From IMG/VR virus record IMGVR_UViG_3300032326_002378: 64,000 bases of DNA. One strand, given 5' to 3'. This DNA comes from an uncultured virus (IMG/VR IMGVR_UViG_3300032326_002378). Its lineage: Duplodnaviria; Heunggongvirae; Uroviricota; Caudoviricetes. Shown here one piece after another: positions 1,835 through 63,558 of the stretch. The translations under genes and the position numbers were made by a program. Each line of letters opens with the position of its first letter. Positions within the stretch are counted from its first letter, which is position 1. The notes under the pieces were generated by a model. It had not been told where the DNA came from and made no database searches. It was given only the letters and a program-made list of their open reading frames with translations.

Positions 1835-2776
1835 ATGGCCTATCCTGGTTCACTTACTAGAGCAGAAATAGCTTCTGGTTTATTAGTCAGAAGTGTTAAG
1901 ATAAATGGTAATTACCTTTTAGTCGAAAGCTGCAACATAAACCAAGTCCAAGATATAGATATGAACTCTTTATATCTACAAGGTGGGCCAGGAAGCGCTA
2001 TTGCAAACATTGGTGCTAAAAAATACGAAGGTGACATATCTTTTTTCATAAGAGTAGATAGAGATAATGTTTTAGATCCTGCAATAAGAGCAATTTTTCA
2101 ACATGCAGAATCTCCAATGTCAGGATTAACTTTAGATACTAATCATTTACTTTCACATTTTGGCATTACAGCTGAAGATGGCGGAACAGACAATAACGAG
2201 CTTTTGACAGTTGATGAATTAGTTATCAAATCACTAAATATCACAGCAAACGAGAATGACTATGTCAAAGTATCAGTATCTTTTCAAGGAATGATTGATA
2301 CTAGAGCTGCTTCAGATTATGCTGTACCTGATGAAAATCATGTTCTAGGAAGATCTTTATCATGGGGAGATTGTAACGCTAGTAGATATGAGTCAAACTT
2401 AAGAACAGTTTCTAGTTTTGAATTGACAATTAATAATGAATTGGAAGCTTTATCATTTCTCATGGCTGGAAACTTAGCTGGAGAAAACCGTTCAGATCAG
2501 ATTGCTCTTATAGGTGTTAAATCAGTCAAGTGGTCTGGAGAATATACAGAAATACTCAGAAAGGGTATGGAGCTTGAAACAGCAATTCATGGTGGGTGGA
2601 TGGTTGATGAAAATCTTACATTTACAATTGGACCAATAACTGCAACATACAGGATACCTTTGTTTCAAAAATCAGAATTACCTCTTACAGCTAAAATGTT
2701 GATTAGGAAAGTAAAATGGAATGCTATGATAAATCCATCAGCACCATTAAGACAAGGTGGATTATTTTCGTTTTAA
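1835..2776 (+). CDS. Putative tail-tube-like protein (paralogue of 2871..3896)
   Basis: 313 aa, beta-rich; N-terminal RSVKING..VES.N..N..YLQGGP....NIG aligns with the downstream gene. Confidence 0.55.
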   Translation: MAYPGSLTRAEIASGLLVRSVKINGNYLLVESCNINQVQDIDMNSLYLQGGPGSAIANIGAKKYEGDISFFIRVDRDNVLDPAIRAIFQHAESPMSGLTLDTNHLLSHFGITAEDGGTDNNELLTVDELVIKSLNITANENDYVKVSVSFQGMIDTRAASDYAVPDENHVLGRSLSWGDCNASRYESNLRTVSSFELTINNELEALSFLMAGNLAGENRSDQIALIGVKSVKWSGEYTEILRKGMELETAIHGGWMVDENLTFTIGPITATYRIPLFQKSELPLTAKMLIRKVKWNAMINPSAPLRQGGLFSF

Positions 2777-2781
2777 GAATA
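2754..2781 (+). promoter_or_regulatory. WAGG-N18-AGAA candidate phage promoter (tandem copy 1)
   Basis: AAGG tggattattttcgtttta AGAATA, upstream of 2871. Confidence 0.6.
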
Positions 2782-2810
2782 GAATAACAACATTTCGAAT
2801 GAATGTATTA

Positions 2811-2838
2811 AAGGGAAAATTTGCATCATAAAAGAAAG
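2811..2838 (+). promoter_or_regulatory. WAGG-N18-AGAA candidate phage promoter (tandem copy 2)
   Basis: AAGG gaaaatttgcatcataaa AGAAAG, 34 nt before ATG 2871. Confidence 0.6.
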
Positions 2839-2870
2839 TACAAATTATATTGGTTTAAGGGAGAATTATT

Positions 2871-3896
2871 ATGCCTCTAAATAATAATCTATTTGGTGTT
2901 TACAAATCACTAAAGGTTAGTGGTCGTACATATGTAGCTGAAAGCGCAAACAGAAACGTGAGCATGGAAGTTGATGCGAAGAACTATATCCAAGGTTCTC
3001 CAAAAGCTCGTGTTCTCAACATTGGTGGAACAAAAGAAACCATTTCTATCACTGCCCCAATCCTCGTTGGTGCTGGCTCTGCTGTTGACGGTAGAGAATT
3101 AGCTAACACCAAAATTACTGAGATTTTGGATCCTAACACTGCTAGACTTCCAGTCCTTGAAAGTGCAGTTTACAAAGTTAGCCCAGATGGAGCTAGCGTT
3201 TCTATTACATTAAAATCTGACGGTGACCCAGGAAGCCCAACAGATACATCACCAAGACCTTTCGAAGTTTCTGGTAGAGAAATTGAAGAACTCAAGCCAG
3301 GTTTTGGTGCTCAACCATCAAGAGTTGCAAGATTCTATGACTTCCGTGTTCAAATTGGTTTCAGAAAGTTCTTCATCCTTGAAGCTGAAATTACAGTTGC
3401 AGCAACAACAACCGAAGCATACTTCTTAGTACCTTACAACACAATCAACGATGGTACTCCTGATTATATCCAAGGCCCATCTGGTTCTGGTACTATTGCA
3501 GCTGGTTTCCAATTCCCGTTCCTTGGTATCTCTGGTATCAAGATCACTGGTAAGGGCAAAGCTGCTGTTATCCTTAAGGATATTCCAGGAACTGCTAACT
3601 ACGGTGACTACTACTTCTTTGATTACTACGGTGGAGAATCAGTCGGAACTGACGAATCTATCAACCTTGGTCTCTCAAGAGGACAATCCGACCTTACATT
3701 CCAAAGACCTGGTGAAGCTGTTGCAGAAGCTCAAAGTTTCCGCCTTGAAATCTTTGATGGTCTTGATGACAATGCATGGGAATCACTCCTCCCAGCAACA
3801 ATTGATACTTCCAAGTCTGTTGTTTCCACTTCAAACTTCTCTGTATCAACTGGTCTTCTTACTGTTGACTTTGACTTCTACTGCTGGGTTCAATAA
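2871..3896 (+). CDS. Putative major tail tube / abundant virion protein
   Basis: 341 aa, beta-rich; strong SD (AAGGGAG); high-expression-type codon bias (TTC, ATC, AAC, GGT, GCT); two upstream promoter motifs and its own terminator. Confidence 0.6.
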   Translation: MPLNNNLFGVYKSLKVSGRTYVAESANRNVSMEVDAKNYIQGSPKARVLNIGGTKETISITAPILVGAGSAVDGRELANTKITEILDPNTARLPVLESAVYKVSPDGASVSITLKSDGDPGSPTDTSPRPFEVSGREIEELKPGFGAQPSRVARFYDFRVQIGFRKFFILEAEITVAATTTEAYFLVPYNTINDGTPDYIQGPSGSGTIAAGFQFPFLGISGIKITGKGKAAVILKDIPGTANYGDYYFFDYYGGESVGTDESINLGLSRGQSDLTFQRPGEAVAEAQSFRLEIFDGLDDNAWESLLPATIDTSKSVVSTSNFSVSTGLLTVDFDFYCWVQ

Positions 3897-3917
3897 TCTA
3901 GCTGCAGAAATGCTTAC

Positions 3918-3946
3918 AAAAAACCTCCCTTTCGGGAGGTTTTTTT
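3918..3946. terminator. Bidirectional rho-independent terminator
   Basis: AAAAAACCTCCC-tttc-GGGAGGTTTTTTT between convergent genes. Confidence 0.9.
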
Positions 3947-4454
3947 ATTCTCTAGTCCAATCTACTATAAACTCTTCATAATTCCAATCATCATATGGAT
4001 CAATCTTATCCCAAGTTTCTTTCACAACATAAAAGTTTAACTTGTTCAATATGCTCATGATTAATCCATCAACAATACTACAAACTGAATAATATCTTCT
4101 GTGTTTAGAATCAACATAATGAAGAGTGCAATATAAAATATCCCCTACTTTTGATTCCAATACAACTTTTTCAATTGCAGAGTTGCTATCTTTTAAATGT
4201 TTGTTAAATATTTGATAAATTGTATGTATATGGGAGTTTTTATGCAAGCTTTTAAAGAAAAACGAGAGCATAGATCCTTCATAAGCATTCAACACTATAG
4301 CAACATCTTTATCATCACCTTCAAGCAATGCATACATTTTGTTTTCAGGGCTTATTAAAATATGTTGTAAATCAACTTTTAATAAACTCAAGTCCTCAAT
4401 GTCATTCAAGTTCTTGGTTTTGATAGTCAATTTTTTAATTGGAAGATCGTCCAT
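3945..4454 (-). CDS. Bifunctional nuclease (DUF151/BFN)-like protein, degenerate
   Basis: Pattern AIVLNAYEGSML...TIYQIF...IEKVVLESKVGDILYCTL...DGLIMSI...FYV follows DUF151. Probable ATG at 4454 overlaps the upstream TGA (track start 4457 is TTG). Confidence 0.65.
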   Translation of the reverse strand: MDDLPIKKLTIKTKNLNDIEDLSLLKVDLQHILISPENKMYALLEGDDKDVAIVLNAYEGSMLSFFFKSLHKNSHIHTIYQIFNKHLKDSNSAIEKVVLESKVGDILYCTLHYVDSKHRRYYSVCSIVDGLIMSILNKLNFYVVKETWDKIDPYDDWNYEEFIVDWTRE

Positions 4455-4858
4455 CAATGACTACAGCCTTCTTTTTGGCAAGGCTTGCAACTACCACAAA
4501 GTTTATTGTTTAAATAATGAGATGCTGCTACAAGAAAAGAACCAAATACTAGAACAAAAGTAAATAAATCTAATTCTAAGCCATGTTCTGCAGAATGATT
4601 ATGATGTAATCTACCAATCACAATCAACATAATTCCTGAACTTAAATATGCAAATGCTTTTAATGATTTATGTTTTCTATAACCAAAACATAAACTGCAA
4701 ACACCCAAAATTGCTGAGAATGCTAATAATCCCCATTCAAAAGATTCATTCACAAAAAGAGATATACCAAATACTGGAACAAGAGTAATAACCAGTGGCA
4801 TAATTAAACAATGAACCGCACATGTCAAACTAGAAAACATTCCTATTTTATCTATCAT
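4454..4858 (-). CDS. MerC-domain membrane protein
   Basis: DKIGMFSSLTCAVHCLIMP N-terminal signature, 4 hydrophobic segments, GYRKH loop, AASHYLN. Confidence 0.85.
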   Translation of the reverse strand: MIDKIGMFSSLTCAVHCLIMPLVITLVPVFGISLFVNESFEWGLLAFSAILGVCSLCFGYRKHKSLKAFAYLSSGIMLIVIGRLHHNHSAEHGLELDLFTFVLVFGSFLVAASHYLNNKLCGSCKPCQKEGCSH

Positions 4859-5472
4859 TTTAATTGGTAACTCTTCCTGTGAAAATATTGAAGTCCATAT
4901 TTAGCAACAGCTTCTTTATGCTTGGGAGTAATGTAGCCCTTGTTACTAATTAAATCATATTCTGGATACTCTTCATGCAATTTGGCTAGAACTCTGTCAT
5001 GATGCACTTTAGCAATTATGCTTGCAGCTGCTACAGCTAAAGAAGTGGAGTCAGCTTTAGGGATCATTAGTTGTGGAGAAAGATTATTCTTTGGTCCTTG
5101 GTCAATAACGTAAACACCTGGTAGCTCATCAATATATTTAGTGGCTTGAGATGCAGAATTAATCATTGCATTTAGGTTTGCTTCTTGAATGCCAAAATTA
5201 TCAATTTCTTCAGCAGATATTTCAATTAAGCCATAAGAAATGCAGCTAGTAATGATTCTTTCGTACAGCTCTTCTCTTTTCTTTTGAGTAAGCTTTTTAG
5301 AATCATTAACTCCTTCTAAAACCTGCCTATCATCTAGTACCACACAAGCAGCAACTAATGGTCCAGCTAAAGAGCCACGACCGCATTCATCAATACCAGC
5401 GATGTATCTGCCATATTTAAGACGAAGTTCATCATCAAACTTTTTTAATTCTATGTGAGCTTGCGATTTCAT
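4855..5472 (-). CDS. rnhB: Ribonuclease HII
   Basis: IAGIDECGRGSLAGP, DSKKL, AAASIIAKV, NKGY.T..H, HRKSY motifs. Confidence 0.95.
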   Translation of the reverse strand: MKSQAHIELKKFDDELRLKYGRYIAGIDECGRGSLAGPLVAACVVLDDRQVLEGVNDSKKLTQKKREELYERIITSCISYGLIEISAEEIDNFGIQEANLNAMINSASQATKYIDELPGVYVIDQGPKNNLSPQLMIPKADSTSLAVAAASIIAKVHHDRVLAKLHEEYPEYDLISNKGYITPKHKEAVAKYGLQYFHRKSYQLK

Positions 5473-7235
5473 TACATTTCTTTCTTAGCTTGATCATAAA
5501 CTTTTTTTGTTAAGAAATTAACTAATTCTCTACCAGATTCTACAAGAGATGAAAGAAGTTCAATATTTTCTGAATTATAATCAGCTTCAATACTTTCTCT
5601 TAAATCATCCAATTCTTTTACTTCTTCTTCAGATAAAACTTTAGTATCAACCAATTCAAATAATTGTATCTTTAAACTAGTAAGCCACTCTCTGAGATTT
5701 GAAAGCTGAATAAATCTCTCATCATCAATTTTATTTTCTTCAGCATCAATAAGCATTTTTGTCATTTCTTCTTTTGATAGAGACCCAGATAATACCATGA
5801 CTTTTTCATTTTTAGTAGCTTCATCTATTGCTTTAACAGTTACAATTCCATCAGCATCAACATCAAAAACTACTTCAATTTTTGGCACACCTCTTCTCAT
5901 AAAAGGAATATTATCTAGCTTAAACTCTCCCAAATAATGATTGTATTTAGTTTGAGGTCTTTCTCCTTGGAATACTTTGACATCTACAGAGGTTTGGTTG
6001 TCTTCAGCTGTGGTAAAAACTTCTCTATATTCTGTGGGGACTTGGGTGTTGCGTCTAATCATTGTATTCATCACGCCACCTAAAGTTTCAATTCCCAAAG
6101 AAAGTGGAGTGACATCTAACAGGAATATCATTTTGTCTGAATTACCTGAAAGAACAGAAGCTTGAATTGCAGCTCCTAATGCCACTGCTTCATCTGGATT
6201 AATTGTTTTGTTTGGACGTTTACCAATCCATTCATTAATCTTCTTTGAAACTAATGGAATACGAGTAGAACCACCAACAAAAACAACTTCATCAATATCG
6301 TTGGCTTTTAATTGTGCGTCATTAAGTGCTTGTTCAATACAATCCTTCGTTTTATTTAAGATCGATTCTATTGCTTTTTCAAACTCTTCTCTAGATACTA
6401 CAACAGAAAGATTTGCTGGCTTTCTATCCCTAAATGAAAACATAGGTATACTTACATTTGTGCTTTCTAATTGAGATAAAGATTTTTTTGCTTTTTCTGA
6501 TGCTGCTCTAAGTCTTGATTTTTGTTGGTCTGATAAATCTTCAATTGTTTTTTCGTTGTAATCATAATCAAACTTGGAATTATATTTATCTAAAATTATC
6601 TGCGCAAGAATATCATCAAAATCAGCACCACCTAAATTAGTATTGCCAGAAGTAGAGAGAACATGAAAATCTACCCCATCTGATAATTTAAGCACTGTAA
6701 CATCAAAAGTACCACCGCCAAGATCATAAACTAATATTGTAGAATCGTGGCTTTTGTCTAATCCATAAGCTAAAGATGCGGCTGTTGGTTCATTGATAAT
6801 TCTTAGTACATTTAATCCAGCAAGTTCTCCGGCAGCTTTAGTGGCTTTTCTTTCATCATTATTAAAGTAAGCAGGAACAGTAATTACCGCATCTGTTACT
6901 TCTTGACCTAAATAATCTTCTGCATCTCTTTTGAGCTTTTTTAGGATCTCTGATGATATTTCGCATGGAGTAAATTGAGCATTATCAAAACAGTAGATTT
7001 TTTCAAATCCTGTACCCATTTTACGTTTGACTAGTCTTATTGCTCTATGTGGATTTTCTGCTTCAAAATCAACAGCTAAATCACCCACCATGCGAACAAG
7101 ATTTTCATCAACTGCAACAACTGATGGTGTAATTCGATTCCCTTCACAATTAGGAATGACTTCAGCTACACCATTTTTAACATAAGAAACTACAGAAAAT
7201 GTACTACCTAAATCTATACCAATTGAAAGTCCCAT
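5472..7235 (-). CDS. dnaK: Hsp70 chaperone DnaK
   Basis: GIDLGST, TVPAYF, NEPTAA, DLGGGTFD, VGGSTRIP, LLDVTPLSLG; shortened C-terminal lid/tail. Confidence 0.95.
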   Translation of the reverse strand: MGLSIGIDLGSTFSVVSYVKNGVAEVIPNCEGNRITPSVVAVDENLVRMVGDLAVDFEAENPHRAIRLVKRKMGTGFEKIYCFDNAQFTPCEISSEILKKLKRDAEDYLGQEVTDAVITVPAYFNNDERKATKAAGELAGLNVLRIINEPTAASLAYGLDKSHDSTILVYDLGGGTFDVTVLKLSDGVDFHVLSTSGNTNLGGADFDDILAQIILDKYNSKFDYDYNEKTIEDLSDQQKSRLRAASEKAKKSLSQLESTNVSIPMFSFRDRKPANLSVVVSREEFEKAIESILNKTKDCIEQALNDAQLKANDIDEVVFVGGSTRIPLVSKKINEWIGKRPNKTINPDEAVALGAAIQASVLSGNSDKMIFLLDVTPLSLGIETLGGVMNTMIRRNTQVPTEYREVFTTAEDNQTSVDVKVFQGERPQTKYNHYLGEFKLDNIPFMRRGVPKIEVVFDVDADGIVTVKAIDEATKNEKVMVLSGSLSKEEMTKMLIDAEENKIDDERFIQLSNLREWLTSLKIQLFELVDTKVLSEEEVKELDDLRESIEADYNSENIELLSSLVESGRELVNFLTKKVYDQAKKEM

Positions 7236-7242
7236 ACAATAA

Positions 7243-7250
7243 ATTATACA
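7243..7250 (-). promoter_or_regulatory. -10 element (TGTATAAT) 7 nt before dnaK ATG, candidate leaderless promoter
   Basis: Minus strand reads TAA-TGTATAAT-ttattgt-ATG with no SD. Confidence 0.5.
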
Positions 7251-7607
7251 TTATTCAGGATTTTCGTCTGGTAGTACAGTTCCTCCAGGCTTATAACCTT
7301 CCATTAATGTATGCAAAACATCTGTATCTTCAAGTCTTTTTTGCATATTCTTAATTTCATTCTTAGTAATAGGCTTTTCAGAATTAATCATGGAAGGATC
7401 TCTATGCAAAGAACTTTTATAATCGTGAGCCATAGAAATTAATTGGACAACAGCAAAAGTATCCTTGCACTTTAAACAGCGCATGACAGCATATATCTCC
7501 ACTTCTGATTTAGGAAGCCAACCCAAATGAGACTCCCTGAAGAATGGATGTTTGCAAGTTCTATTAAGACAATTTTTTGGCTTTCCAACAATAGTTTGGT
7601 GATGCAT
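7251..7607 (-). CDS. Hypothetical Zn-binding protein
   Basis: 118 aa with CLNRTC and CLKC cysteine pairs. Confidence 0.7.
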   Translation of the reverse strand: MHHQTIVGKPKNCLNRTCKHPFFRESHLGWLPKSEVEIYAVMRCLKCKDTFAVVQLISMAHDYKSSLHRDPSMINSEKPITKNEIKNMQKRLEDTDVLHTLMEGYKPGGTVLPDENPE

Positions 7608-7641
7608 AGTATACCTGCCTATAAGATGCTGATTCTTTTAA

Positions 7642-7669
7642 TATTCTATGTATATGCAAGTAATTCCTA
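7642..7669 (-). promoter_or_regulatory. WAGG-N18-AGAA candidate phage promoter
   Basis: TAGG aattacttgcatatacat AGAATA on the minus strand, 36 nt before ATG 7607. Confidence 0.6.
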
Positions 7670-7676
7670 AGGTAAA

Positions 7677-7704
7677 AAGGATCTACTCATGGTATATTAT
7701 AAAC
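7677..7704 (+). promoter_or_regulatory. Variant motif AAGG-N18-ATAA, back-to-back with the previous copy
   Basis: AAGG atctactcatggtatatt ATAAAC upstream of 7780/7854. Confidence 0.4.
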
Positions 7705-7779
7705 AGTAGTATTGTTCATTGTCGAGCATTATTCTTCCAAAGATGGTTTGTTTGAAATCTATTTAAGGAGGTATTGACA

Positions 7780-7851
7780 ATGAATATACTTAGAGACATC
7801 GAAGAACTCTTTACAACTGTATTTGAAACCCTTTTCAAATTCGAGTTATAA
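7780..7851 (+). CDS. 23-aa microprotein (not in ORF track)
   Basis: Perfect SD TAAGGAGGT at 7764-7772; MNILRDIEELFTTVFETLFKFEL*; stop lies 2 nt before the next ATG. Confidence 0.7.
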   Translation: MNILRDIEELFTTVFETLFKFEL

Positions 7852-7853
7852 TC

Positions 7854-8585
7854 ATGAAAACCGCTATTGTTTACTCTTGTTTTTTATCAGGCAAATGGTA
7901 TTCATTAGTAACAAATCAATTAAACAAAATCTTCTCCTCCAAAACAGTGTTGAATGGGGGAGATGTTTTTATTTGTGCTGTTGGTACTGAAGAAGAATAC
8001 AAGAAACTAATTGAAATTGTTGGAAATCATAAAGCTACAATTTCTTACCATCCAGATACAAAATATGGATGCGAAGCTTATGGCTTTATGAGAATGCATG
8101 AAATTAGCAAAGAAGGCTATGAATACATTTGCTTCATGCATAGTAAGGGTGTTTCAAGATTAAAAGATCCAATGCCAGTAATTGTCACTATCAATACTTG
8201 GCGAGCTTGTATGGAGTATTTTGTGTTAGATAGAGCTGATGATTGCATTTCAGCGTTACAAGTTTCAGACAAAAACTGTGCTGGTGTTATGCTTGATGTT
8301 TTAAATTGGTTTCACGATGATGTTAGTTTTGAAAAGTCAGTATCAATCTATCACTGGGCTATATTTCCAGGCAATTTCTTCTGGGTTAAAGGCACATGGT
8401 TTGCTGAACAACGAGAGCCTACGTTTGAAGAAGACAGATATGAATATGAGAGATTCCTTGGAACTTGTAATGGAATAAACCCCTACTATATCTGGATTAA
8501 AAAATATTCAGCAGTAGGGGCTCATATGTCTTATTTTGAACCAATTTACGAACAAGAATACAAAGGTTCAGAAAAACTTATTTAA
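7854..8585 (+). CDS. Putative glycosyltransferase-related protein
   Basis: YICFMHSKGVS, WRACMEYF, GNFFW, RYEYERFLG motifs resemble rhamnan-synthesis-F-like viral glycan proteins. Confidence 0.5.
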   Translation: MKTAIVYSCFLSGKWYSLVTNQLNKIFSSKTVLNGGDVFICAVGTEEEYKKLIEIVGNHKATISYHPDTKYGCEAYGFMRMHEISKEGYEYICFMHSKGVSRLKDPMPVIVTINTWRACMEYFVLDRADDCISALQVSDKNCAGVMLDVLNWFHDDVSFEKSVSIYHWAIFPGNFFWVKGTWFAEQREPTFEEDRYEYERFLGTCNGINPYYIWIKKYSAVGAHMSYFEPIYEQEYKGSEKLI

Positions 8586-10383
8586 TTGCAAACATCTTCC
8601 AAGCCCTTTCATTTCTGTAAACCTTTTTTCTCATTTGACAGTGAGATTTAAGGTTTTTCTGTTCAGGCATAAAGTCAATTATCACAGCATCAGGTTTACC
8701 ATTAGATATTGATTGTTCTATATCTTTACCAACACATCTTAATACTCTTCCAACTTGCTGATATGTAGTTACTGATGATTGATTTGAACCAGCTAATATT
8801 AACACTGAAATCTTTGGTGCATCAACTCCAACGTTTGCCCATTGAGTAGCTATCAAAACAATTTCATTATTTTCAACAGCATTAAGCATTCTTCGGCGAT
8901 AATTCTTTTCCTCATCAGTTGGGTCATCTACGCCCTTGTCACCACCAGGAACAAATACAGCATCCTCAATTAATCCTTCAAGTAAGAATCCATGTTCTCT
9001 TCTTTCAACTAATATGATTGTAGGTCTTCCAGCTTCTTTAAATGCTTCTGCAAATTGTTTGATTCTGAAGTTTCTCTCCCAGTTATTTACAATGTTGTTT
9101 GAATAGATATCAGCATAAGTATCGCCATCATGATTTTCAGCAACATTACATACAAAAATCTTGGGTGGAACTAAAAAACCAAGTTCAATTAAATCACTAG
9201 CACTAACATCAATTATTTTTCTCCCAAGAGTGCCTTCAATTCTAATTTCTTGATTGTCCATTCTCCAAGGTGTACCAGACAAACCAAGGCGATAATAGGC
9301 TTTTTTAGCATAAGAACCTAATTCTTGAATAACCACTGAAGCTACGTGTGCTTCATCAACTATAAAGGCTTGACAAGATGAAATCAAATTGCGAACTTGA
9401 CTTTTTTGAAACAATACTTCTTGTCTATTATCCCAAGCTGTTTTTGCTTTTTTATATGCTGTTAATTCATTTTTGAGAAGAGCATTTAACTCTCTATTAA
9501 ATTGTTTTTCTAGAGTTAAGGCAGTTGCAGATAAAGATTTTTTAACTTTTAAATCGGTTTCTTTATCACTAAGTTCTACTGCATTTTTCATTCTTTTTTG
9601 GAGTTCAGCCAGTTTAGCAGTTGCGTTATTTTTAGCTATTTTTAAGTTTTTATCAGCTTCATCTAATTCTTTTTGAAGTTGAGCAGTAGTTTTTGGACCA
9701 TCAACATTAGGATCGTCAACAACTTTATTGCCCTTTTCAATATACTTTTTATCGAAAGCATTTAAAGCTGTCTGGTAAGTGACTACATTGATTCCTTCAA
9801 GATTGATATCACAAAGACCACCACCAGCAATGCCTACTTTCACTGGTTTGCCATCAAGTCTAAGATATCTTTCAAACTCTTTTTGTGTTTGCTTAAGAAG
9901 TTCGATAGCAGGTACTATAAATACTACTGGGCTTACTGCAAGATTCTCAAAAATCTTACATGATGTCATTGTTTTACCAGCGCCAGTACAAAGAGAAAGC
10001 ATACCTCTTTGTGTTTTACGTGCTAAAGTTGCAGCATTTTCTTGATAAAATCTTAGTTCTTTACCTTCAAAATCGCAAGTTACTGGATAATTACGATCAG
10101 GTTTTACTCTAACATCAATTACTTCATGATCGATTTTTAAAGAATTAAATAATCTTCTAATTCTTCCAGTTAAACCAGATGGAAAAGATTGAGTTCTTTT
10201 ATTGTAAAGAGAAATCTTACCATCCCACTGGCCTTGCTTAAACTTCTGTGACCATTCAGCTGAAGGAACTTCATAAGACAATTCTGTTCTGATTGCTTCA
10301 TGTAAGTTATTGTTTACAGCATATTCATCGTGTAAGTTACCAACGATTTTGCCAAATGAATTATCAACTTCTATTTTGACCAT
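8578..10383 (-). CDS. SF2 DEAH-box helicase (UvsW/XPB-like) with coiled-coil insertion
   Basis: LRFYQ (Q motif), CTGAGKT, IVP, TYQ, IVDEAH, GLSGTP, GVDAP, QQVGRVLR. Confidence 0.9.
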   Translation of the reverse strand: MVKIEVDNSFGKIVGNLHDEYAVNNNLHEAIRTELSYEVPSAEWSQKFKQGQWDGKISLYNKRTQSFPSGLTGRIRRLFNSLKIDHEVIDVRVKPDRNYPVTCDFEGKELRFYQENAATLARKTQRGMLSLCTGAGKTMTSCKIFENLAVSPVVFIVPAIELLKQTQKEFERYLRLDGKPVKVGIAGGGLCDINLEGINVVTYQTALNAFDKKYIEKGNKVVDDPNVDGPKTTAQLQKELDEADKNLKIAKNNATAKLAELQKRMKNAVELSDKETDLKVKKSLSATALTLEKQFNRELNALLKNELTAYKKAKTAWDNRQEVLFQKSQVRNLISSCQAFIVDEAHVASVVIQELGSYAKKAYYRLGLSGTPWRMDNQEIRIEGTLGRKIIDVSASDLIELGFLVPPKIFVCNVAENHDGDTYADIYSNNIVNNWERNFRIKQFAEAFKEAGRPTIILVERREHGFLLEGLIEDAVFVPGGDKGVDDPTDEEKNYRRRMLNAVENNEIVLIATQWANVGVDAPKISVLILAGSNQSSVTTYQQVGRVLRCVGKDIEQSISNGKPDAVIIDFMPEQKNLKSHCQMRKKVYRNERAWKMFAIK

Positions 10384-10392
10384 AGCGTAAGA

Positions 10393-10402
10393 ATTATATC
10401 AT
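10393..10402 (-). promoter_or_regulatory. Extended -10 (TGnTATAAT) 9 nt before helicase ATG
   Basis: Minus strand TGATATAAT-tcttacgct-ATG, no SD. Confidence 0.5.
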
Positions 10403-10438
10403 AAAAAGAAAGAAACGGGAAAATACTTCCCGTTTCTT
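10403..10438 (-). terminator. Rho-independent terminator
   Basis: 12-bp stem AAGAAACGGGAA/TTCCCGTTTCTT with 5-nt loop, followed by a T-rich tract on the minus strand, just after the 10457..10906 gene. Confidence 0.8.
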
Positions 10439-10456
10439 ATTTGTGGTTAAGTTTAT

Positions 10457-10906
10457 TTACTCAGGATCAGTAAAAGACATGGAATTGAATTTGTTAACTG
10501 CTACTGATATAGCTTTTGGCTTTTTACCTACAAACATATCAAGAGTACTCATAACAAGTGTCTGAATATTTTCAACGTCAGAATCGGTTAATTCAACACC
10601 TTGGTTTACAGCTGCCAATCTAATAAATCTTACAAACTGGTCAACTCTATCTTCATCAGAAAACTCGCCGTCTTTAATTTGTTCAAGTCCTGCAATCCAA
10701 GCATCTACAAGCATAATGCCCTTCTTGCCTAATTTAACTGCTAAAACTGACCTAATTACAATCAATGTCTGTAATGCTACTTTTGTATCATTCGGGGCGG
10801 CTCTTGAAAGCAAAAACAAAGCAACCATAGAAATAATACAAAGCATTCCAATTACTAACAAGCCCTGCCAGTTAGTAAGAATTAAAGCTATTTGAGATAG
10901 TTCCAT
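10457..10906 (-). CDS. Membrane protein, possibly holin-like
   Basis: N-terminal TM segment then helical domain (...QGVELTDSDVENI) reminiscent of LL-H-type holins. Confidence 0.4.
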   Translation of the reverse strand: MELSQIALILTNWQGLLVIGMLCIISMVALFLLSRAAPNDTKVALQTLIVIRSVLAVKLGKKGIMLVDAWIAGLEQIKDGEFSDEDRVDQFVRFIRLAAVNQGVELTDSDVENIQTLVMSTLDMFVGKKPKAISVAVNKFNSMSFTDPE

Positions 10907-10907
10907 T

Positions 10908-11120
10908 TTAGCAATCCTTAGCTACTATATCATCATCGTCGTCAGTACTATTGATGTCAAGATCTACATCAGTTGTAAGAGGAATGACAAGCTCGTCCTT
11001 GATTGGGTCTTGTTTCTTTTCATCTGCCCAAACTACTCCTTCATTAGATGCAACTACTTCATCGCCCTCTGCATCTGTGAACTTCTCAATCTTGCCTGTG
11101 GCTCTCTTAATCATTGCCAT
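10908..11120 (-). CDS. Small acidic hypothetical protein
   Basis: 70 aa, GAGG SD, Asp-rich C-terminus; coupled to the next gene. Confidence 0.7.
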   Translation of the reverse strand: MAMIKRATGKIEKFTDAEGDEVVASNEGVVWADEKKQDPIKDELVIPLTTDVDLDINSTDDDDDIVAKDC

Positions 11121-11131
11121 AATTTTTTACC

Positions 11132-12106
11132 TCAATTATTTAAAGTAGAAACATACTTAGAAAGAATATCTTCCTGCTCTGCAGTCAAACTGTCAGGATA
11201 ATTATACAGAAAAGTGATGATAAACTCTCCACTAGAAGAATCTGGTCGTGGGATACCTTCTTTTTCAAATCTTAACAAACTATCCAATTTAGTAAGCTTT
11301 TCAACTGTAACTTCTTTTTCTACACCGTTAGGAAACTTAATATTTTTCTTTGTGCCGATCAAAGCTTCTATAGGGTTCAAAGAAAGCTTATAGAAAACAT
11401 TACCTTGATTATCAAACTCAAAATCAGGATGTTGGTTCAAATTAAACTCTACTATAGCCTTGCCTGGTGGTTGGGTAGGATTTTCTTGATTACCACCATC
11501 AGGGATCATAATTGCAGAAAATACTTGCCCTATTTTAATATGTAAAGCTCTTTGTATTGTTTCGGTAGTCAAACCATTTCCATGGCATTGACCGCAAATT
11601 ATATCTAACTTCCAGCCCCTGCCCTTACAATCATGGCAAGGTCCTAATATTTGCTCAAAGAAGAAACCACCATGTTGCATAGTGTGTTTGTTTTGTCCTG
11701 AACCCATACAAGTTCTACAAACTTGTTTTGCACCAGAGCCACCTTCGCCATTACAAGATTTACAAAATACTCTTCTTTGATACATAATATTTTTTGTATC
11801 TTCTTTAAAAAGATCTTCTAATGACAAGTTAACTTTGAGAGTGATGGGGGTGTTAAAAGATTGAGTTTTAACTACATTCCAAGAATCAAAGGGGTTGTGA
11901 TGCTGAGGTGGCTGATCATATCTACTTTTTGAATCGGGATCACTTAAAACTGAATAAGCTTCATTTATTTTTTTAAACTTATCCTCAGCATCAGGTTCTT
12001 TATTTACATCAGGGTGAAACTGCTTGGATAGTTTTCTGTAAGCTGATTTGATTTCATCAGAAGTTGCATTTCTTCCAACTCCTAATATTTCATAATGATC
12101 TTGCAT
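11132..12106 (-). CDS. dnaJ: DnaJ (Hsp40) co-chaperone
   Basis: [11 protein letters not shown]-domain with HPD; four CxxCxGxG repeats; C-terminal DnaJ_C. Start placed at ATG 12106 rather than TTG 12130. Confidence 0.92.
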
Positions 12107-12112
12107 ACTTAA

Positions 12113-12120
12113 AGTATACA
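12113..12120 (-). promoter_or_regulatory. -10 element (TGTATACT) 6 nt before dnaJ ATG, candidate leaderless promoter
   Basis: Minus strand TGTATACT-ttaagt-ATG, no SD. Confidence 0.45.
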
Positions 12121-12122
12121 GG

Positions 12123-12947
12123 TTATTCAATATTGTAAGGATTGTTTTTGACTTCTATTCCCTTGCTGCGTAGATAATTTATAAATTCCTTAGGACTATA
12201 TGTGTCGTTTTTAGAAATGTTTTCTTTTAAGTCTAAAGGTTGTAAGTTGTCAAGATCATTTATAATTTTAATGTCTTCTATATGATCAAAGCCATGTTCA
12301 ACAAATGCTTTTATAGGAAAAATATGATCAATTGACATTTGATTATTTTTTAATGATGAAAGATAATTAGGATGACTTTCTATTTTTTCTTTTAATTGAA
12401 GTGGGGTAAAATTTAGAAGATTATAAGTCTTATCACATTTAGAATTTTTTGTAGCAATTAAGCATTTTCTCAAAATATCTTTGCATTTTCTTCTGTATAT
12501 TTGGTACTTTTCAACTTTCTCACGATCTTCTTGCCATAAATGATTTTCAGACCCAATCCGCTTTTGCTTATGTATGCCACAATCTTTACATCTGACACCA
12601 GATTTAAAATGTGAAAATTTTTGAACAGACTCTTTCCCGCAAATACAAATATAATTCATAGGTGTTGTCGAATTGATATATTCTGTTTCAAGTAATTTAC
12701 AACCATTTTGTAAATAATAGTCATAGACATAGTCAAAATCAAATTGTCTATCTTTTCTTAATTTATTTATCTTGCAATTTCTGCATCTTGATCCGTTTTT
12801 GAATGACATCCATGCAATTGAGCTTTCATTTCCACAAGAGCAAATATATTTCATAGGTGCTGAGTTTTTGACATATATGTCAATAAGCTTACAATTATTT
12901 TTTAAAAACTCATTTGAAACATACTCTTGTGTTAATTTATCTCTCAT
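12123..12947 (-). CDS. Free-standing HNH homing endonuclease with two Zn-ribbon repeats
   Basis: Two repeats CKL..Y.NS..PM.YIC.CG...FK.G.RC..C; C-terminal SIDHIFP...NLQPL...ENISK. Confidence 0.8.
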
Positions 12948-13624
12948 TTTCCAATCTTCTTTAATAAACTTATTATTTTATTAGAAGGACACGCTGCGTT
13001 TTGTCCAACACCTACATCAGCATGTTGTCCTGTTACACCCATCACACATCCAGCAACAGTACCATCAGTAAGAACTAACATTCCTCCTGATGCGCCTTCT
13101 AAAATATCAGCATCAAAGAACAAAATATCTTGCCATGCCAAACTTGGACTTTGCTTTCCTAAAGTTTGATGTACATTAGTAATTCTTCCAACAGTTGCAG
13201 TATCATGAAAACCTTCTGGTGATCCTAAAACTGCAATAATATCTCCCACTTCAACAGTGTCAGAATTAGCTAGTTGTACTGCTGGTATATTTTTAGCAAT
13301 AGGGGTAGATAATATAATTCCAGCATCATAATTTGGATCAGATATTTGCATTTCTGCTGGATATAAAGATTCGCCATCAAATGAAACTTTAATTTCATGT
13401 GGTTTTTTAAGCAACACTGGAGGCACTACATGCGAGGCAGTAACAATATATCCTTCGCCAACATGAAATCCACTTCCAGTCCAGCTTTGGTCACCTGCAT
13501 CAACATAGATAGTGCATGAAGATTGAATTGCTGTTTGAATAATCTTTTTGACAGGATCTTCTATTTTTTGTCCTAGCTTCATTCTCCAAGCAAGAGAATC
13601 AGCGTTGAATGAAAACAAACTCAT
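12944..13624 (-). CDS. Trypsin-like serine protease (S1, HtrA-type catalytic domain, no PDZ)
   Basis: GSGF, TASHVV (His), YDAGI (Asp), GASGG (Ser). Confidence 0.88.
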   Translation of the reverse strand: MSLFSFNADSLAWRMKLGQKIEDPVKKIIQTAIQSSCTIYVDAGDQSWTGSGFHVGEGYIVTASHVVPPVLLKKPHEIKVSFDGESLYPAEMQISDPNYDAGIILSTPIAKNIPAVQLANSDTVEVGDIIAVLGSPEGFHDTATVGRITNVHQTLGKQSPSLAWQDILFFDADILEGASGGMLVLTDGTVAGCVMGVTGQHADVGVGQNAACPSNKIISLLKKIGK

Positions 13625-14082
13625 TTACTTATAACCTTGTACATTATATCTGATTTTTTGACCGCTCCAAATCTTCTTGAATCATCTGAGTGTTCAGTAT
13701 TGTCTCCAAGTAAATACACATAACCTTTTGGTACTATATGTTTCATCACTAAAAAATTATGATTACCTTCATAATATTTTTCAGCCATAACACCAATATG
13801 TTGATCAAATACTTCAACTTTGTCTGAATGAGAATACATTAAATAATAATAAACATCATTTTCAACAAACTTAATTCTTTTTATAATAGTTTCTCTAAAA
13901 TCATTCTTTGTAACGACAACATCATTTACAGAAAAATCATTAGTTTTAACAGCCAAAAGTAATTCATTGTTTTTAAGAAAAGGGTGCATTGAAACACCCT
14001 TAACTACAATAATTTTAAAAGGCATAGCCCATAAAGCCAAAACTACTAATAAGCAAACAATTAATTTGATATATTTTCTCAT
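13621..14082 (-). CDS. lepB: Signal peptidase I (S26)
   Basis: N-terminal TM, GVSMHP (Ser), IIKRI (Lys), LGDN...SDDSRRFG. Confidence 0.9.
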   Translation of the reverse strand: MRKYIKLIVCLLVVLALWAMPFKIIVVKGVSMHPFLKNNELLLAVKTNDFSVNDVVVTKNDFRETIIKRIKFVENDVYYYLMYSHSDKVEVFDQHIGVMAEKYYEGNHNFLVMKHIVPKGYVYLLGDNTEHSDDSRRFGAVKKSDIMYKVISK

Positions 14083-14145
14083 TGCACTTCTCCTATTTTC
14101 AGAAGAAGAGCTTAAAGATTTTTGTTTTTTGCCTTTTGGCTCTTT

Positions 14146-15196: not shown

Positions 15197-15225
15197 TATT
15201 CTGAATGCAATGAGATTAAATCCTA
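15197..15225 (-). promoter_or_regulatory. TAGG-N19-AGAATA candidate phage promoter for the protease genes
   Basis: TAGG (overlaps upstream TAG stop) atttaatctcattgcattc AGAATA. Confidence 0.55.
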
Positions 15226-35824: not shown

Positions 35825-35852
35825 TATTCTCGTAAAAGACCTCTTAGCCCTT
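35825..35852 (-). promoter_or_regulatory. WAGG-N18-AGAA candidate phage promoter
   Basis: AAGG gctaagaggtcttttacg AGAATA, 45 nt before ATG 35781. Confidence 0.65.
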
Positions 35853-55639: not shown

Positions 55640-55641
55640 AA

Positions 55642-55821: not shown

Positions 55822-55884
55822 TTTAAATAACTCCTAAAGTTTTATTATTAATTTTTGTACAAATACCTTTGAGGATTAGCTTCA

Positions 55885-56235: not shown

Positions 56236-56236
56236 C

Positions 56237-57013
56237 ATGGAAGAACCAGAATCATTTATTATTCAAAATATCACTATGAATTATCAATATATTAGTGATA
56301 TCAGACTTCAATTAGATCCACTACAAGTTGAAGACCTAACATGGTGGGATGCTAAAGTTGTCAAAGCATCAAGAGATCTCAAAGAAGCACTTCGAAGAGG
56401 TGTTTTACGTCAAATCACTCAAACAGAATGGGATTCTAAGCTAGAAAAGCAAGCTGCTAAAGAAAGAAGAGAGCTTTCACTTAACAATAAGAAAGAAAGA
56501 ATCAAGACTATTGAAACTGAAGATGGAAAGCAATTTGAAGCTGAATCTATTGATGCTGAAAAGCCTTACAGTAAAGAAGGAGAGCTAAGCACTGCTGGTT
56601 ATGCCAATGATGCTCTTTCTTACGCTATTGCTCTAGAAACTGCGCAAGTACAGGCTGAACTTAATGGTGAGGAATTGACTGTTGAAGATTTTGCTGAAAG
56701 AGTTGAGCGTGATCCAGCTTTAGTTGCTAGACTTCTAAGACAAAATACAGGTGCAGTGACATCAGGGACAAACAGACAATCTAGAGCTTTTGTAGCTCAA
56801 GCTCCTGAACTTGGCAGATCAGAAACTACTGTTGCTGGAATGAAGATGTCCAACATGCAAAGAGACGGATACATTGCAGGTGGAGATTTTAACTACACTG
56901 CAAAGCCAAGTGATGATTTTGGATTTGATAGCGAACCTTCAATTGCTGAGGAAATTGACCTTGAAGTTGATTCTTTAGGAGATGATGAAAAGGGCTCAAT
57001 TAGAAGACTCTAG
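56237..57013 (+). CDS. Hypothetical acidic protein
   Basis: 258-aa ORF with AAGGA SD. Confidence 0.75.
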   Translation: MEEPESFIIQNITMNYQYISDIRLQLDPLQVEDLTWWDAKVVKASRDLKEALRRGVLRQITQTEWDSKLEKQAAKERRELSLNNKKERIKTIETEDGKQFEAESIDAEKPYSKEGELSTAGYANDALSYAIALETAQVQAELNGEELTVEDFAERVERDPALVARLLRQNTGAVTSGTNRQSRAFVAQAPELGRSETTVAGMKMSNMQRDGYIAGGDFNYTAKPSDDFGFDSEPSIAEEIDLEVDSLGDDEKGSIRRL

Positions 57014-57017
57014 AAAA
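56990..57017 (+). promoter_or_regulatory. WAGG-N18-AGAA candidate phage promoter
   Basis: AAGG gctcaattagaagactct AGAAAA overlapping the stop at 57013. Confidence 0.5.
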
Positions 57018-57038
57018 ATTGTAATAAGACTTAAGCTT

Positions 57039-57072
57039 AAGAAGGCAGTCTAACAAGGCTGCCTTCTTTTTT
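57039..57072 (+). terminator. Rho-independent terminator-like hairpin
   Basis: AAGAAGGCAGTCT-aaca-AGGCTGCCTTCTT-TTTT. Confidence 0.8.
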
Positions 57073-57085
57073 ATGGAGACATCTT

Positions 57086-58150
57086 ATGGCAGACTTCAAC
57101 GCATCATCATTTACACAAAGTGAACTTGTATTCTACAATAGATCTGCTGGGACTCAAGGTATTTACATTGAGTGGGAAAGATACACCGGATCTGGAGTAA
57201 GTGTATACAATATTTATAGAAGTGAGTATTTTGATGGCAACTACGAACTTGTAGATGCTGTTGTATTTCCAAAAAATGAATATGTAGACAAGACTGGTAA
57301 ACCTTCATATTATTACAAGATAGAAGAAGTTGGAGGTACTGGATATACAGTTTCCTTTAGTACAAGCGCTCCAATTTCTGGTGATGAATTACTTACAAAA
57401 AGTAGCTTAAGATTTGAATTAGAGCACCTTTTGAACATCCCAATTTATGATGAAGAAGTTTTATTCAATGCAAATAGAACTTCTGCTTCTGTAGCTTTTC
57501 CTCATTGGAATTATTCTCCAAGACCACAAGTTAGAATTACTGGCGCATCAAATGAAGGTGACAGTGAACCAATGAAGTTCTTGTCTGAATATGATCCAAT
57601 TTACACGACTCTTTCAGGGACAGCTGCATCATCATATCCACAAGGTTTAAAATATAAAACAGATTACAACGGAAATATTTACTTCTTAAAAGCTGATGGC
57701 ACCCCGCAATCTATACAAAGCTACGACACTGTAATGGTTTCTTACAACATCAAAATGTTTACAAGTCAACACATGAACAGTGCATTGAATATGGCTTTGC
57801 AATCAGTTAATTCTCAACCTGGTTCTTCAAAATATCAATCAGTGGCCAGCGCTCCATTCTATTACGAACCAGCTCTTGTTATTGGTGCTTCTTATTATCT
57901 TTTAAGAAGTTTGCTTGTATCTTTGACAGGCAGACAAAGAAGATTGTTACTTGAAGATCCTGATGCAAAAATTGTTGATGATCTTAGACAATCAGCTACA
58001 ATGTATAAAGAAGATTTTGAGAAACAACTTGAGAAACTTCCAATTGCAAGATTCCCAAGAATTACGACTATTGTCACTCCAGCTTTCAACATGCCTGGTG
58101 GTAGATCAAGATTCTTTAGATACATTTGGAATCTCGGTACTGGTGTCTGA
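57086..58150 (+). CDS. Putative virion neck/head-tail protein with FN3-like N-terminus
   Basis: YNIYRS...EYVDKTG..YYYKI (FN3-like); helical C-terminus resembling head-tail adaptors; GGAG SD. Confidence 0.5.
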   Translation: MADFNASSFTQSELVFYNRSAGTQGIYIEWERYTGSGVSVYNIYRSEYFDGNYELVDAVVFPKNEYVDKTGKPSYYYKIEEVGGTGYTVSFSTSAPISGDELLTKSSLRFELEHLLNIPIYDEEVLFNANRTSASVAFPHWNYSPRPQVRITGASNEGDSEPMKFLSEYDPIYTTLSGTAASSYPQGLKYKTDYNGNIYFLKADGTPQSIQSYDTVMVSYNIKMFTSQHMNSALNMALQSVNSQPGSSKYQSVASAPFYYEPALVIGASYYLLRSLLVSLTGRQRRLLLEDPDAKIVDDLRQSATMYKEDFEKQLEKLPIARFPRITTIVTPAFNMPGGRSRFFRYIWNLGTGV

Positions 58151-61080: not shown

Positions 61081-61081
61081 A

Positions 61082-62425: not shown

Positions 62426-62430
62426 TACTA

Positions 62431-62459
62431 AAGGTTAAATTTATTTCTTTTATATAATC
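62431..62459 (+). promoter_or_regulatory. Variant motif AAGG-N19-ATAAT (also contains TATAAT)
   Basis: AAGG ttaaatttatttcttttat ATAATC upstream of 62544. Confidence 0.4.
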
Positions 62460-62543
62460 TTTATAGTATTAATACTAATTACTGTATTAAATAGAATTCC
62501 CTTAATTATCGGGTGTTAAAAAAAAGAAAAAGTTGGAGCAATT

Positions 62544-62975
62544 ATGAGCAGTAACATTAAAGCAGCGTTGAAGAACATCAAGCCTAAAGTGGCTTCCAAA
62601 TCAGGCATCACTCAAAGAGTTGCTCAGATGTTGGATGAAATGAACCAATTTGATACGATGGGTGCAACAGACATGATGGGTGGGTTAGATAGCATTGAAA
62701 CAAACAATAGCATCAATTATGTAAACCCAGATGCACCTTATGGCAGCGCAAACATTTCAAAATATGCACTTCCTAGAGAAGACAACGATGTTCAGACCGA
62801 TTCTAATCACACCATCCATACTTTCAAAATTGACATTAAGACCCCTAAGGGAGACACATTCCCAAAGTCTGATGTAATGAAAGCAGTTGGCGATGCAGTG
62901 GAAGGTTTGGGTAATATGGAAGTGATGGGCTTTTCATATCAAAAGGCAGATAAGGAAGGCTCAAAGAAATCCTAG
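62544..62975 (+). CDS. Hypothetical protein
   Basis: 143 aa, GGAG SD; N-terminal KVA/RVAQ motifs. Confidence 0.75.
   Translation: MSSNIKAALKNIKPKVASKSGITQRVAQMLDEMNQFDTMGATDMMGGLDSIETNNSINYVNPDAPYGSANISKYALPREDNDVQTDSNHTIHTFKIDIKTPKGDTFPKSDVMKAVGDAVEGLGNMEVMGFSYQKADKEGSKKS
62943..62970 (+). promoter_or_regulatory. WAGG-N18-AGAA candidate phage promoter
   Basis: AAGG cagataaggaaggctcaa AGAAAT, 16 nt before ATG 62985. Confidence 0.5.
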
Positions 62976-62984
62976 GAGCCATAA

Positions 62985-63533
62985 ATGTCGGAACAAGATA
63001 TCAAGAAGCTGCGTCATTCGTTTACTAACCCTTTTCGTGAAGACTTACCAAAGCCCAAAATTAATCAGTTTGGGCATACAATTTTGACCGATAGTGATAT
63101 TTGTGAGTTAGATCTTTCAGAGTTCAAAATAGAGCAAAATCCTGATGGTTCTGTAACCTTGAACAAACCATTGATGCAGAGCTTTATAGAGACATACGTT
63201 CAGCATTCTGAATCAGAACCAGAAAATTCTGAAGTATTTATTCAACCAGTTGAAAGTGATTTATTAACAAAACTTATTTCAGAACTCGATGACATGAAAG
63301 AAGATAAATCAAAACCTTTCTTGAAAACAAGTGCTTCTGAAATTGATACGGCAAAAACTACTCAAAACGTAATGAAATCCTGTGCAAATGAAAAATGCTT
63401 GTACGGTTTGCCAAAGGAAGCTACGTTTTGTTTGAAATGTGGAACTTATCAAGCCCCTAAATTTTGCACAGAATGTGGATTTAAGTTTCCAGGAATGGAA
63501 AAGTTCTGCCCTGATTGTGGAACAAAAAGATAG
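62985..63533 (+). CDS. Double zinc-ribbon protein
   Basis: C-terminal CANEKC, FCLKCG, FCTECG, FCPDCG; AGGAG SD. Confidence 0.85.
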   Translation: MSEQDIKKLRHSFTNPFREDLPKPKINQFGHTILTDSDICELDLSEFKIEQNPDGSVTLNKPLMQSFIETYVQHSESEPENSEVFIQPVESDLLTKLISELDDMKEDKSKPFLKTSASEIDTAKTTQNVMKSCANEKCLYGLPKEATFCLKCGTYQAPKFCTECGFKFPGMEKFCPDCGTKR

Positions 63534-63558
63534 GTATTGACAACAATTTACGAGAAAA
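63531..63558 (+). promoter_or_regulatory. WAGG-N18-AGAA candidate phage promoter
   Basis: TAGG (overlaps TAG stop) tattgacaacaatttacg AGAAAA, 10 nt before ATG 63567. Confidence 0.6.

Follow-up and report, generated by a model that had tools for sequence, protein, structure and literature searches.

What reads a short, two-part DNA word that recurs just ahead of the genes of an uncultured phage? The word, WAGG-N18-AGAA, was picked out by an initial annotation of a 64-kb stretch of viral DNA (IMG/VR record IMGVR_UViG_3300032326_002378; hereafter the window, meaning the whole 64 kb), which took it to mark a candidate regulon under a phage-specific sigma factor. This DNA belongs to an uncultured jumbo phage and has a GC content of about 33%. 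By sequence comparison with its relatives, the two-box word is a real and conserved promoter-like signal with the shape of a sigma-H promoter, and the probability is about 70% that AGG(A/G)W-N17-19-AGAA is the promoter class of a SigH-like sigma factor, serving non-early genes: the head module and the tail, virion, chaperone and protease operons. Since close relatives carry a sigma-H-like factor of their own, the phage would be re-aiming the host RNA polymerase with an unusual sigma.

The seven exact copies reported for the window are all present, at 2754, 2811, 56990, 62943 and 63531 on the plus strand and at 7669 and 35852 on the minus strand, and every one is in the sense orientation, ending 10-91 nucleotides (nt) before a same-strand start codon. 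Upstream stop codons are reused as described: the TAG of gene 62985-63533 falls within the TAGG at 63531, and the TAA at 2774-2776 and the TAG at 57011-57013 are likewise part of motif copies. The five near-matches also read as first listed (15225-, 41049-, 7677+, 62431+ and 55869-). Three further exact matches all lie in coding sequence, two of them antisense (12191+ and 32746+) and one sense (26286-), giving 10 matches on the two strands of the window against a mean of 5.87 in shuffled sequence (standard deviation (sd) 2.45; 10 or more in 6 of 100 shuffles). In the 41 stretches of 120 nt upstream of window genes, AGG-N18-AGAA occurs 7 times against 0.82 expected (Poisson 2.4e-5), the third best p of all dyads made of a 3-mer, N14-22 and a 4-mer.

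The decisive evidence comes from relatives of the window. G001, a 261-kb IMG/VR contig, is collinear with the entire window over its positions 70829-134031 at 83-84% identity; G002, a 300-kb contig, has 129 reciprocal-best proteins in common with G001 (mean identity 49%, median 47%), and the estimated completeness of the G001 and G002 records is 73% and 84%, respectively. A 94-kb contig and G003 (a 55-kb contig with about 75-79% protein identity) are further relatives. With the window as the source of the motif, two unseen test sets are available: the 198 kb of G001 that lie outside its homologue of the window, and the whole of G002.

In that part of G001, 7 of 21 exact WAGG-N18-AGAA matches end no more than 120 nt upstream of a same-strand start, a zone that makes up 6.3% of strand positions, and N18 gives the highest upstream count of 28 spacings (the rest 1-6, mean 2.4). 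Restricting the same sequence to its intergenic upstream regions (84 regions, 9,332 nt; spacings N8-30), AGG-Nx-AGAA occurs 4, 6 and 2 times at N17, N18 and N19 against a mean of 0.82 at other spacings, a control mean that includes N17 and N19 (N18 Poisson P 2.1e-4); measured by dyad expectation, the N18 count is 6 versus 0.96 (P 4.8e-4). The intergenic upstream regions of G002 (133 regions, 16,281 nt) repeat the pattern with 4, 6 and 3 matches at N17, N18 and N19 versus a mean of 1.41 (P 3.3e-3), and the 9 upstream WAGG-N18-AGAA matches of G002 are the maximum over N8-30, other spacings giving 1-5. An unbiased dyad scan of all 98 G001 regions places AGG-N18-AGAA second among 3+4 dyads (10 versus 1.23 expected, p 7e-7, where the 5% point of the shuffle minimum is 2.4e-6). 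The cores of the SigH consensus behave alike: outside the homologue in G001, AGGA and GAAT at offsets 21-22 are found 6 times upstream versus 5 times elsewhere, whereas at eighteen other offsets the figures are 13 upstream and 129 elsewhere (offset 23, with 2 versus 6, was placed in neither group). The enrichment upstream of starts that the initial annotation had set as a check is therefore present in both test sets, and the N18 spacing that it gave survives as the peak of a signal that tolerates N17-19.

The boxes and their spacing are those of a known promoter family. SigH promoters of Bacillus subtilis have an 11-12 nt spacer between two 9-mers. For B. subtilis and B. thuringiensis the consensus boxes are RNAGGAWWW and RNNGAATWW, as given in the available part of PMC8510167. 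Among the Clostridioides difficile SigH promoters in Table 3 of PMC7438776, whose rows were counted by eye, 30 of 40 read AGG-N17/18-NGAA, 15 with N17 and 15 with N18, and the N of NGAA is most often A (18 promoters, against 7 with C, 3 with T and 2 with G). Given this agreement in boxes and spacing, the motif is the C. difficile SigH promoter almost letter for letter, and the phage peak at N17-19 bears out the sigma-H-like spacing proposed at the outset. Among 16 intergenic sites from G001 and G002, AGG is followed by A 11 times, by G 4 times and by T once, and the position after that holds only A (10 sites) or T (6 sites), which reproduces the AGGA-then-A/T of a SigH-type -35 box; the NGAA(T) of a SigH-type -10 box follows 17-18 nt after AGG. 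In the window, the -35 box reads TTAGGAATT at 7669 and ATAGGATTT at 15225. The boxes AGG and AGAA do not fit the TTGACA-N17-TATAAT of the housekeeping sigma-70/sigma-A class, matches to which are not enriched between 55600 and 64000 (34 versus 35.9 in shuffles, sd 6.3).

The likeness has limits. G before AGG is common in C. difficile and is found at none of the 16 phage sites, where C is frequent; the preceding base is A at 6 sites and C and T at 5 each, so that the leading W of the word as first written does not belong to the signal. After GAA, the phages do not favour T (A 7, T 4, G 3, C 2 at the 16 sites), and the phage sites serve virion and chaperone genes, whereas those of C. difficile serve a transition-state regulon with mapped starts.

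Those mapped starts also correct the predicted start position. Transcription had been expected to begin 6-8 nt after AGAA; in C. difficile, 21 of the 30 promoters start at the 10th or 11th nt past NGAA, if the last printed base is the mapped start, an assumption consistent with the starts given for spoIIAA, spo0A and sigA2 in the available part of that paper (PMC7438776). The distances from AGG-N17/18-NGAA to the ATG in G001 and G002 fall into two groups, with 4 gaps of 9-10 nt (about 0.5 at control spacings) and 14 of 28-40 nt (3.75 at control spacings) and none of 19-27 nt. The four genes of the short-gap group have no Shine-Dalgarno sequence, and their transcripts are predicted to start on the A of the ATG, that is, to be leaderless, with the ATG at the position of the C. 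difficile start, 10-11 nt past GAA.

A sigma factor that would fit such promoters is encoded by the relatives. The initial annotation proposed a search for a sigma70-family gene in the rest of the genome; G001 and G002 each have two sigma-like open reading frames (ORFs), one of them SigH-like, and the window has none. The 242-aa sigma of G001 scores best on five SigH / PRK08295 NCBIfam models (TIGR02859 and NF006145-NF006148; E 7e-33 to 2e-25), ahead of the next family, the generic sigma70-ECF model (extracytoplasmic function; 1.5e-14, 54 bits), so that SigH is the closest sigma family, with alignment over regions 2 to 4. Its Pfam matches are PF04542 at 31.1 bits (cut-off 24) and PF08281 at 25.5, just below 25.7. 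The best match in the PDB is 3mzy_A, an 'RNA polymerase sigma-H factor', over residues 54-216 (E 3e-16; next 2e-4). It differs from the cellular members in being phage-borne and only about 30% identical to its cellular matches. This SigH-like sigma is 76% identical between G001 and G002, seventh of the 129 pairs, and has more than 200 relatives at 70-92% identity on contigs of up to 337 kb, for which the Joint Genome Institute (JGI) name is 'sporulation-specific sigma factor'; isolated phages have no close copy (best identity at most 33%). The second sigma (184 aa, ECF-like; TIGR02937, 7e-21) is 48% identical between the two genomes. The G001 and G002 records have no Pfam match to a beta, beta' or T7-type polymerase, the control for the T7 type being blank as well. 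Among genome contigs, the best match to the sigma is on a 7-kb contig in a Bacteroidetes metagenome-assembled genome (70%); of two contigs matching at about 30%, L045 carries an ECF sigma with an anti-sigma neighbour, and L048 shows no sigma ORF of 150 aa or more within the listed range. None of these contigs supplied a usable host assignment.

The surroundings of the sigma gene deserve a note of their own. On the minus strand of G001 at 199206-199281 (L021), TTTACA-N17-CATAAT comes after a hairpin with a T run and ahead of a gene run with a clamp-loader-like gene, the SigH-like sigma and adenylosuccinate synthetase. The box pair is a possible housekeeping-type promoter of the sigma operon and, judged by its letters, would fit early expression by the host housekeeping sigma.

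The motif is conserved before particular genes. Of the 129 G001-G002 pairs, 5 have a motif no more than 150 nt upstream in both genomes, 8 have one in G001 alone, 3 in G002 alone and 113 in neither genome (Fisher P 2.2e-4), and the DNA around the shared sites cannot be aligned between the two. The five genes are a structural / minor-tail gene, an immunoglobulin-like (Ig-like) decoration gene, a prohead-protease fusion gene, a 351-aa gene in the head module and a 533-aa gene that is the first in a run ending with the major head protein (phrog_2522, 1.6e-68); the motif is also kept before the ortholog of the last in L072, a lineage at 54% identity. Conservation in related contigs, another check proposed at the outset, thus takes the form of recurrence before orthologs and, at window sites 7669 and 35852, of invariant boxes flanking a diverged spacer. 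The proposed late class for tail, protease and head genes holds in that the motif precedes head, tail, virion and prohead-protease genes; 'late structural only' is too narrow, because the class also precedes the chaperone operon (118-aa gene, Hsp70, RNase HII). Pfam gave no family for nine proteins downstream of the motif, the Gp23 and HK97-type capsid models had no match in G001 or G002 (the Gp23 control was also blank), the best score of the 533-aa protein against a protein atlas was an uninformative 0.79, and the major head protein was recovered by PHROGs after the Pfam capsid models. What the sequences show directly is the motif with its preferred spacing, its enrichment and its conservation, together with the sigma gene of the relatives and the identity of the genes downstream.

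Two features of the head module stand beside these results. The major head protein (284 aa; G001 168976-169830, G002 185824-186678) is 96% identical between the two genomes against the 47% median. The last 20-25 nt of the leader of the 533-aa gene (gagggaagcagca..) are nearly invariant in L069-L072 and G002, down to 47-54% protein identity, and the rest of that gap is far less conserved; this leader end may be a translation-control element.

From these observations we infer a promoter role, the sigma that reads it, the start position and the timing. The host RNA polymerase with its housekeeping sigma would transcribe an early or middle operon that contains the phage SigH-like sigma gene. The phage sigma would then bind the host core polymerase, its region 4 reading AGGA as the -35 box and its region 2 reading (A)GAA as the -10 box. 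Transcription would start about 10-11 nt past AGAA, giving a leader of 20-30 nt with a Shine-Dalgarno sequence or, where AGAA lies 9-10 nt from the ATG, a leaderless mRNA. A phage sigma that redirects the host core to a phage promoter class of middle or late genes is familiar from SPO1 gp28 and gp33/34, T4 gp55, phiEco32 gp36 and phage 7-11. Their boxes are unlike those described here: gp28 promoters have AGGAGA and a T-rich -10, and T4 late promoters a -10-like box alone, whereas both boxes here are of the cellular SigH kind. Such cascades are described, in the parts of the sources available, for SPO1 (PMC13401047) and for phiEco32 and 7-11 (PMC8948821, PMC12276001), and gp28 groups with sigH, sigD and sigI in the tree shown in the available part of Schwartz et al.

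A number of observations weigh against this reading. On the side of the statistics, the best dyad in 100 shuffled sets of window upstream sequence has a median p of 2.7e-5, matching that of the motif about half the time, so that a motif chosen post hoc is not significant from the window by itself; the above-chance claim of the initial annotation stands in the independent sequence of the relatives. Read in antisense, the intergenic sets likewise have their peak at N17-19 (4, 2 and 2 in G001; 5, 3 and 2 in G002), a control that is confounded because divergent gaps entered both orientations. The ORFs of the relatives are crude longest-ATG gene calls. The 16 intergenic sites have no conserved positions beyond the A/G and then A/T after AGG, a de novo expectation-maximisation search returned terminator hairpins or A-rich low-complexity models in place of the motif, and a motif of about 16 bits is too short for single sites to be called confidently. 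As to the sigma, none of the 41 window ORFs has a sigma domain, and we infer one in the window's own phage because G001, collinear at 83-84% identity, encodes it. The 242-aa protein falls under every curated SigH cut-off (NF006147 114 of 212 bits, NF006148 107 of 208, TIGR02859 104 of 294.8), about half the cut-off or less, and so is called SigH-like, not SigH; it is not an equivalog of the family.

Conservation, too, has gaps. All five motif genes shared by G001 and G002 lie outside the window's region, and G002 has an exact AGG-N18-AGAA at none of the places equivalent to the seven exact window copies, 35852 reading GGAA there and 2754 TGAA. Site 7669 is not kept in L068, a 68%-identity lineage, and sites 2811 and 63531 are preserved only in the closest relatives (G001; 2811 also in L001). 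Two exact copies are doubtful. The one at 56990..57015 (plus strand) lies in the 3' end of gene 56237-57013 and is kept in G001 only, where it is coding; its predicted start falls about 13 nt before a strong intrinsic-terminator-like hairpin (57039..57068, plus strand; 13 pairs and a T run, between genes 56237-57013 and 57086-58150), and it is probably not a productive promoter. The other, at 62943..62968 (plus strand), falls entirely within gene 62544-62975, with the next start 16 nt further on, is kept in G001 only (coding) and is absent in G002; given this coding location and a predicted start past the ribosome site, it is probably a chance copy. Among the near-matches, the terminal ATAA of 7677, 62431 and 55869 sits within a TATATT, TATAAT or TAATAA box, which makes them look like members of another, sigma-A-like class.

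The remaining sites of the window can be ranked. Three of them are well supported by sequence conservation as putative promoters. The best candidate is 7644..7669 (minus strand), an exact match reading TTAGGAAT ... AGAATA, 36 nt upstream of the 118-aa gene 7251-7607; the exact motif is kept in G001, the 94-kb contig and G003, with the boxes TTAGGAAT and AGAATA unaltered in all three. Its footprint is telling, 14 of 14 box positions being constant while 6 of 15 spacer positions have changed in G001 and 12 of 15 in G003; the predicted transcription start is about 7634-7633. The second, 35827..35852 (minus strand), is an exact match in the 73-nt gap before the 1347-aa gene 31738-35781, exact also in G001 and in G003, where 10 of 17 spacer positions differ; the G002 equivalent is AGG-N18-GGAA, and the start is predicted at about 35817-35816. 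The third, 15199..15225 (minus strand), has the N19 form, ATAGGATTT ... CAGAATA, 33 nt before the subtilase gene 14146-15165, the first gene of the protease/DnaJ block; this form is kept in G001 and, with a diverged spacer, in G003, and not in G002.

Two copies share one gap, and it is likely that at least one of them is real. The copy at 2754..2779 (plus strand; exact) overlaps the last codons and stop of gene 1835-2776 and lies 91 nt before gene 2871-3896. AGG ... GAAT is found at equal offset in the window, L001, L002/G001 and G003, with TGAA in G002, a conservation that is ambiguous because the stretch codes (..GGLFxF..) in the relatives. The copy at 2811..2836 (plus strand; exact) is fully intergenic, 34 nt before the same gene, with a predicted start at about 2846-2847, upstream of a GGGAG ribosome site; it is kept in L001 and L002/G001, has lost AGAA by a 10-nt deletion in G003 and is absent in G002.

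Site 63531..63556 (plus strand; exact) adjoins gene 63567-63998 and overlaps a sigma-70-like TTGACA-N18-TAGATT. The A of the ATG is the 11th nt past AGAA, with no intervening Shine-Dalgarno sequence, and a leaderless mRNA is predicted for that reason; a leaderless promoter is plausible here. The site is kept in G001 with spacer changes and not in G002, and a gap of 9-10 nt without Shine-Dalgarno recurs at three G002 genes. The near-match at 41049 lies in coding DNA, with AAAA in place of AGAA and TAAA there in G001.

The sites might instead be read by a host sigma of the SigH type, alone or jointly with the phage's, the phage sigma serving another purpose such as perturbing host programmes; late or accessory phage genes would then be linked to the transition-state physiology of the host. 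The motif is indistinguishable from the mapped C. difficile SigH promoters, Shine-Dalgarno use and low GC are compatible with a Bacillota-like host, and sigmas of the sporulation type carried by phages can affect host regulons without being needed for lysis, according to the available part of the Schwartz et al. preprint. This reading is nonetheless distinctly unlikely. The sole binning hint, the 7-kb contig, points to Bacteroidetes, a phylum that is not known to have SigH. Few proteins of the clade are as conserved as the phage sigma (76% against the 47% median, with the more than 200 relatives at 70-92%), and since the motif precedes the head genes themselves, it would be a fragile arrangement to depend on a host factor of stationary phase.

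It is very improbable that the signal is real and has another reader, either the 184-aa ECF-like second sigma or a DNA-binding regulator with half-sites two helical turns apart. Both G001 and G002 have the second sigma-like ORF, and the function of a short motif is here deduced just from position and conservation; against this, the boxes are unlike the GAAC/CGT-type boxes of ECF sigmas, the second sigma is just 48% conserved between the two genomes while the motif is unchanged, and the layout, the spacing tolerance of one nt either way and the distance to start codons closely match SigH promoters.

That the word is a by-product of composition (A/G-rich sense strands, a Shine-Dalgarno-like AGG and an A-rich AGAA at gene junctions, picked post hoc) is scarcely credible and largely refuted, since the ordinary total in the window, the shuffled dyads, the implausible coding positions of 62943 and 56990 and a few matches in the relatives with an ATG after AGG, which could be ribosome sites of small ORFs, are set against an N17-19 peak that composition cannot yield in two genomes that played no part in defining the motif, recurrence ahead of orthologs whose upstream DNA cannot be aligned, invariant boxes flanking diverged spacers, and the lack of a start codon after AGG at most intergenic sites. 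Shine-Dalgarno sequence combined with N-terminal codon bias was also considered as a cause and was rejected on that last ground.

If the motif is the promoter class of the phage's own SigH-like sigma, an uncultured and widespread clade of jumbo phages gains a readable map of gene expression, with a predicted sigma-promoter pair, predicted starts that include leaderless genes and a temporal sorting of many unknown genes. The pair would add a SigH-type member to the few phage sigma-promoter pairs and is a possible orthogonal expression part; a literature search, which was not exhaustive, found no paper on a SigH-type sigma-promoter pair in a jumbo phage. It also raises the question of cross-talk with host SigH regulons, which may exist because the phage promoters and sigma copy a host-type SigH system closely. 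Host SigH would then fire the virion and chaperone operons of the phage in stationary, pre-sporulation or competence-state cells, and the phage sigma would switch on the host SigH regulon. Such cross-talk is unlikely; if true, phage development would be coupled to the host's exit from growth, or that decision sabotaged.

The gene content of the window gives the setting. A tail-tube-like gene (1835-2776, plus strand; PF18906) is followed on the minus strand by an operon with the 118-aa gene 7251-7607 in first place and genes for Hsp70, RNase HII and a MerC-like protein, and further on by a gene for a UvsW-type helicase and a block encoding DnaJ, peptidases of the trypsin-like, S26 (signal peptidase) and subtilase types and an HNH nuclease; the whole of 3945-15165 on the minus strand amounts to a chaperone and protease kit, which includes the MerC-like protein, a membrane protein. 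Nine consecutive, very large ORFs (786-3056 aa) have PHROG matches to Ig-like or virion proteins, or none. No match to 8.3 kb of window DNA was found by megablast among GenBank phages. Features shared with the 'group 2' jumbo phages of Iyer et al. 2021 (PMC7824862) are a UvsW-type helicase, a protein with a DnaJ domain, sigma factors of the phage's own and the absence of a phage RNA polymerase. Those phages differ in their minimal and RpoD-like sigmas, for which the available part of that paper gives no promoter motif, and in the gp23-type capsid, for which there is no Pfam match here (the control for that model was likewise blank).

TATAAT-like boxes occur near 7677 and 62431, as described above, and in the gap upstream of the UvsW-type helicase gene (10384-10456, minus strand), where a terminator-like hairpin is followed by a TGATATAAT box. 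By its letters this box looks like a housekeeping-type promoter, and the window would accordingly seem to carry at least two promoter classes. In G001, three tandem copies of the 11-nt unit acacgtagtaa (about 34985-35025; L013 about 14985-15025, minus strand) are located between a motif at 35030 and the start of a 1156-aa structural gene, and these repeats account for the ACGT-N18-ACGT dyads in the G001 dyad scan. Within the 1777-aa ORF at 47921-53254, positions 48001-52000 have a GC content of only 25.6% and an AT skew of -0.18, against about 33% GC elsewhere, which suggests a compositionally odd or repetitive domain. Finally, a strong Shine-Dalgarno sequence, AAGGAGG, lies 8 nt upstream of an ATG at 7781 (7766-7852, plus strand). 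This ATG begins a 23-codon ORF that ends 1 nt before gene 7854-8585 and may code for a short leader peptide or be a micro-gene that is not annotated.

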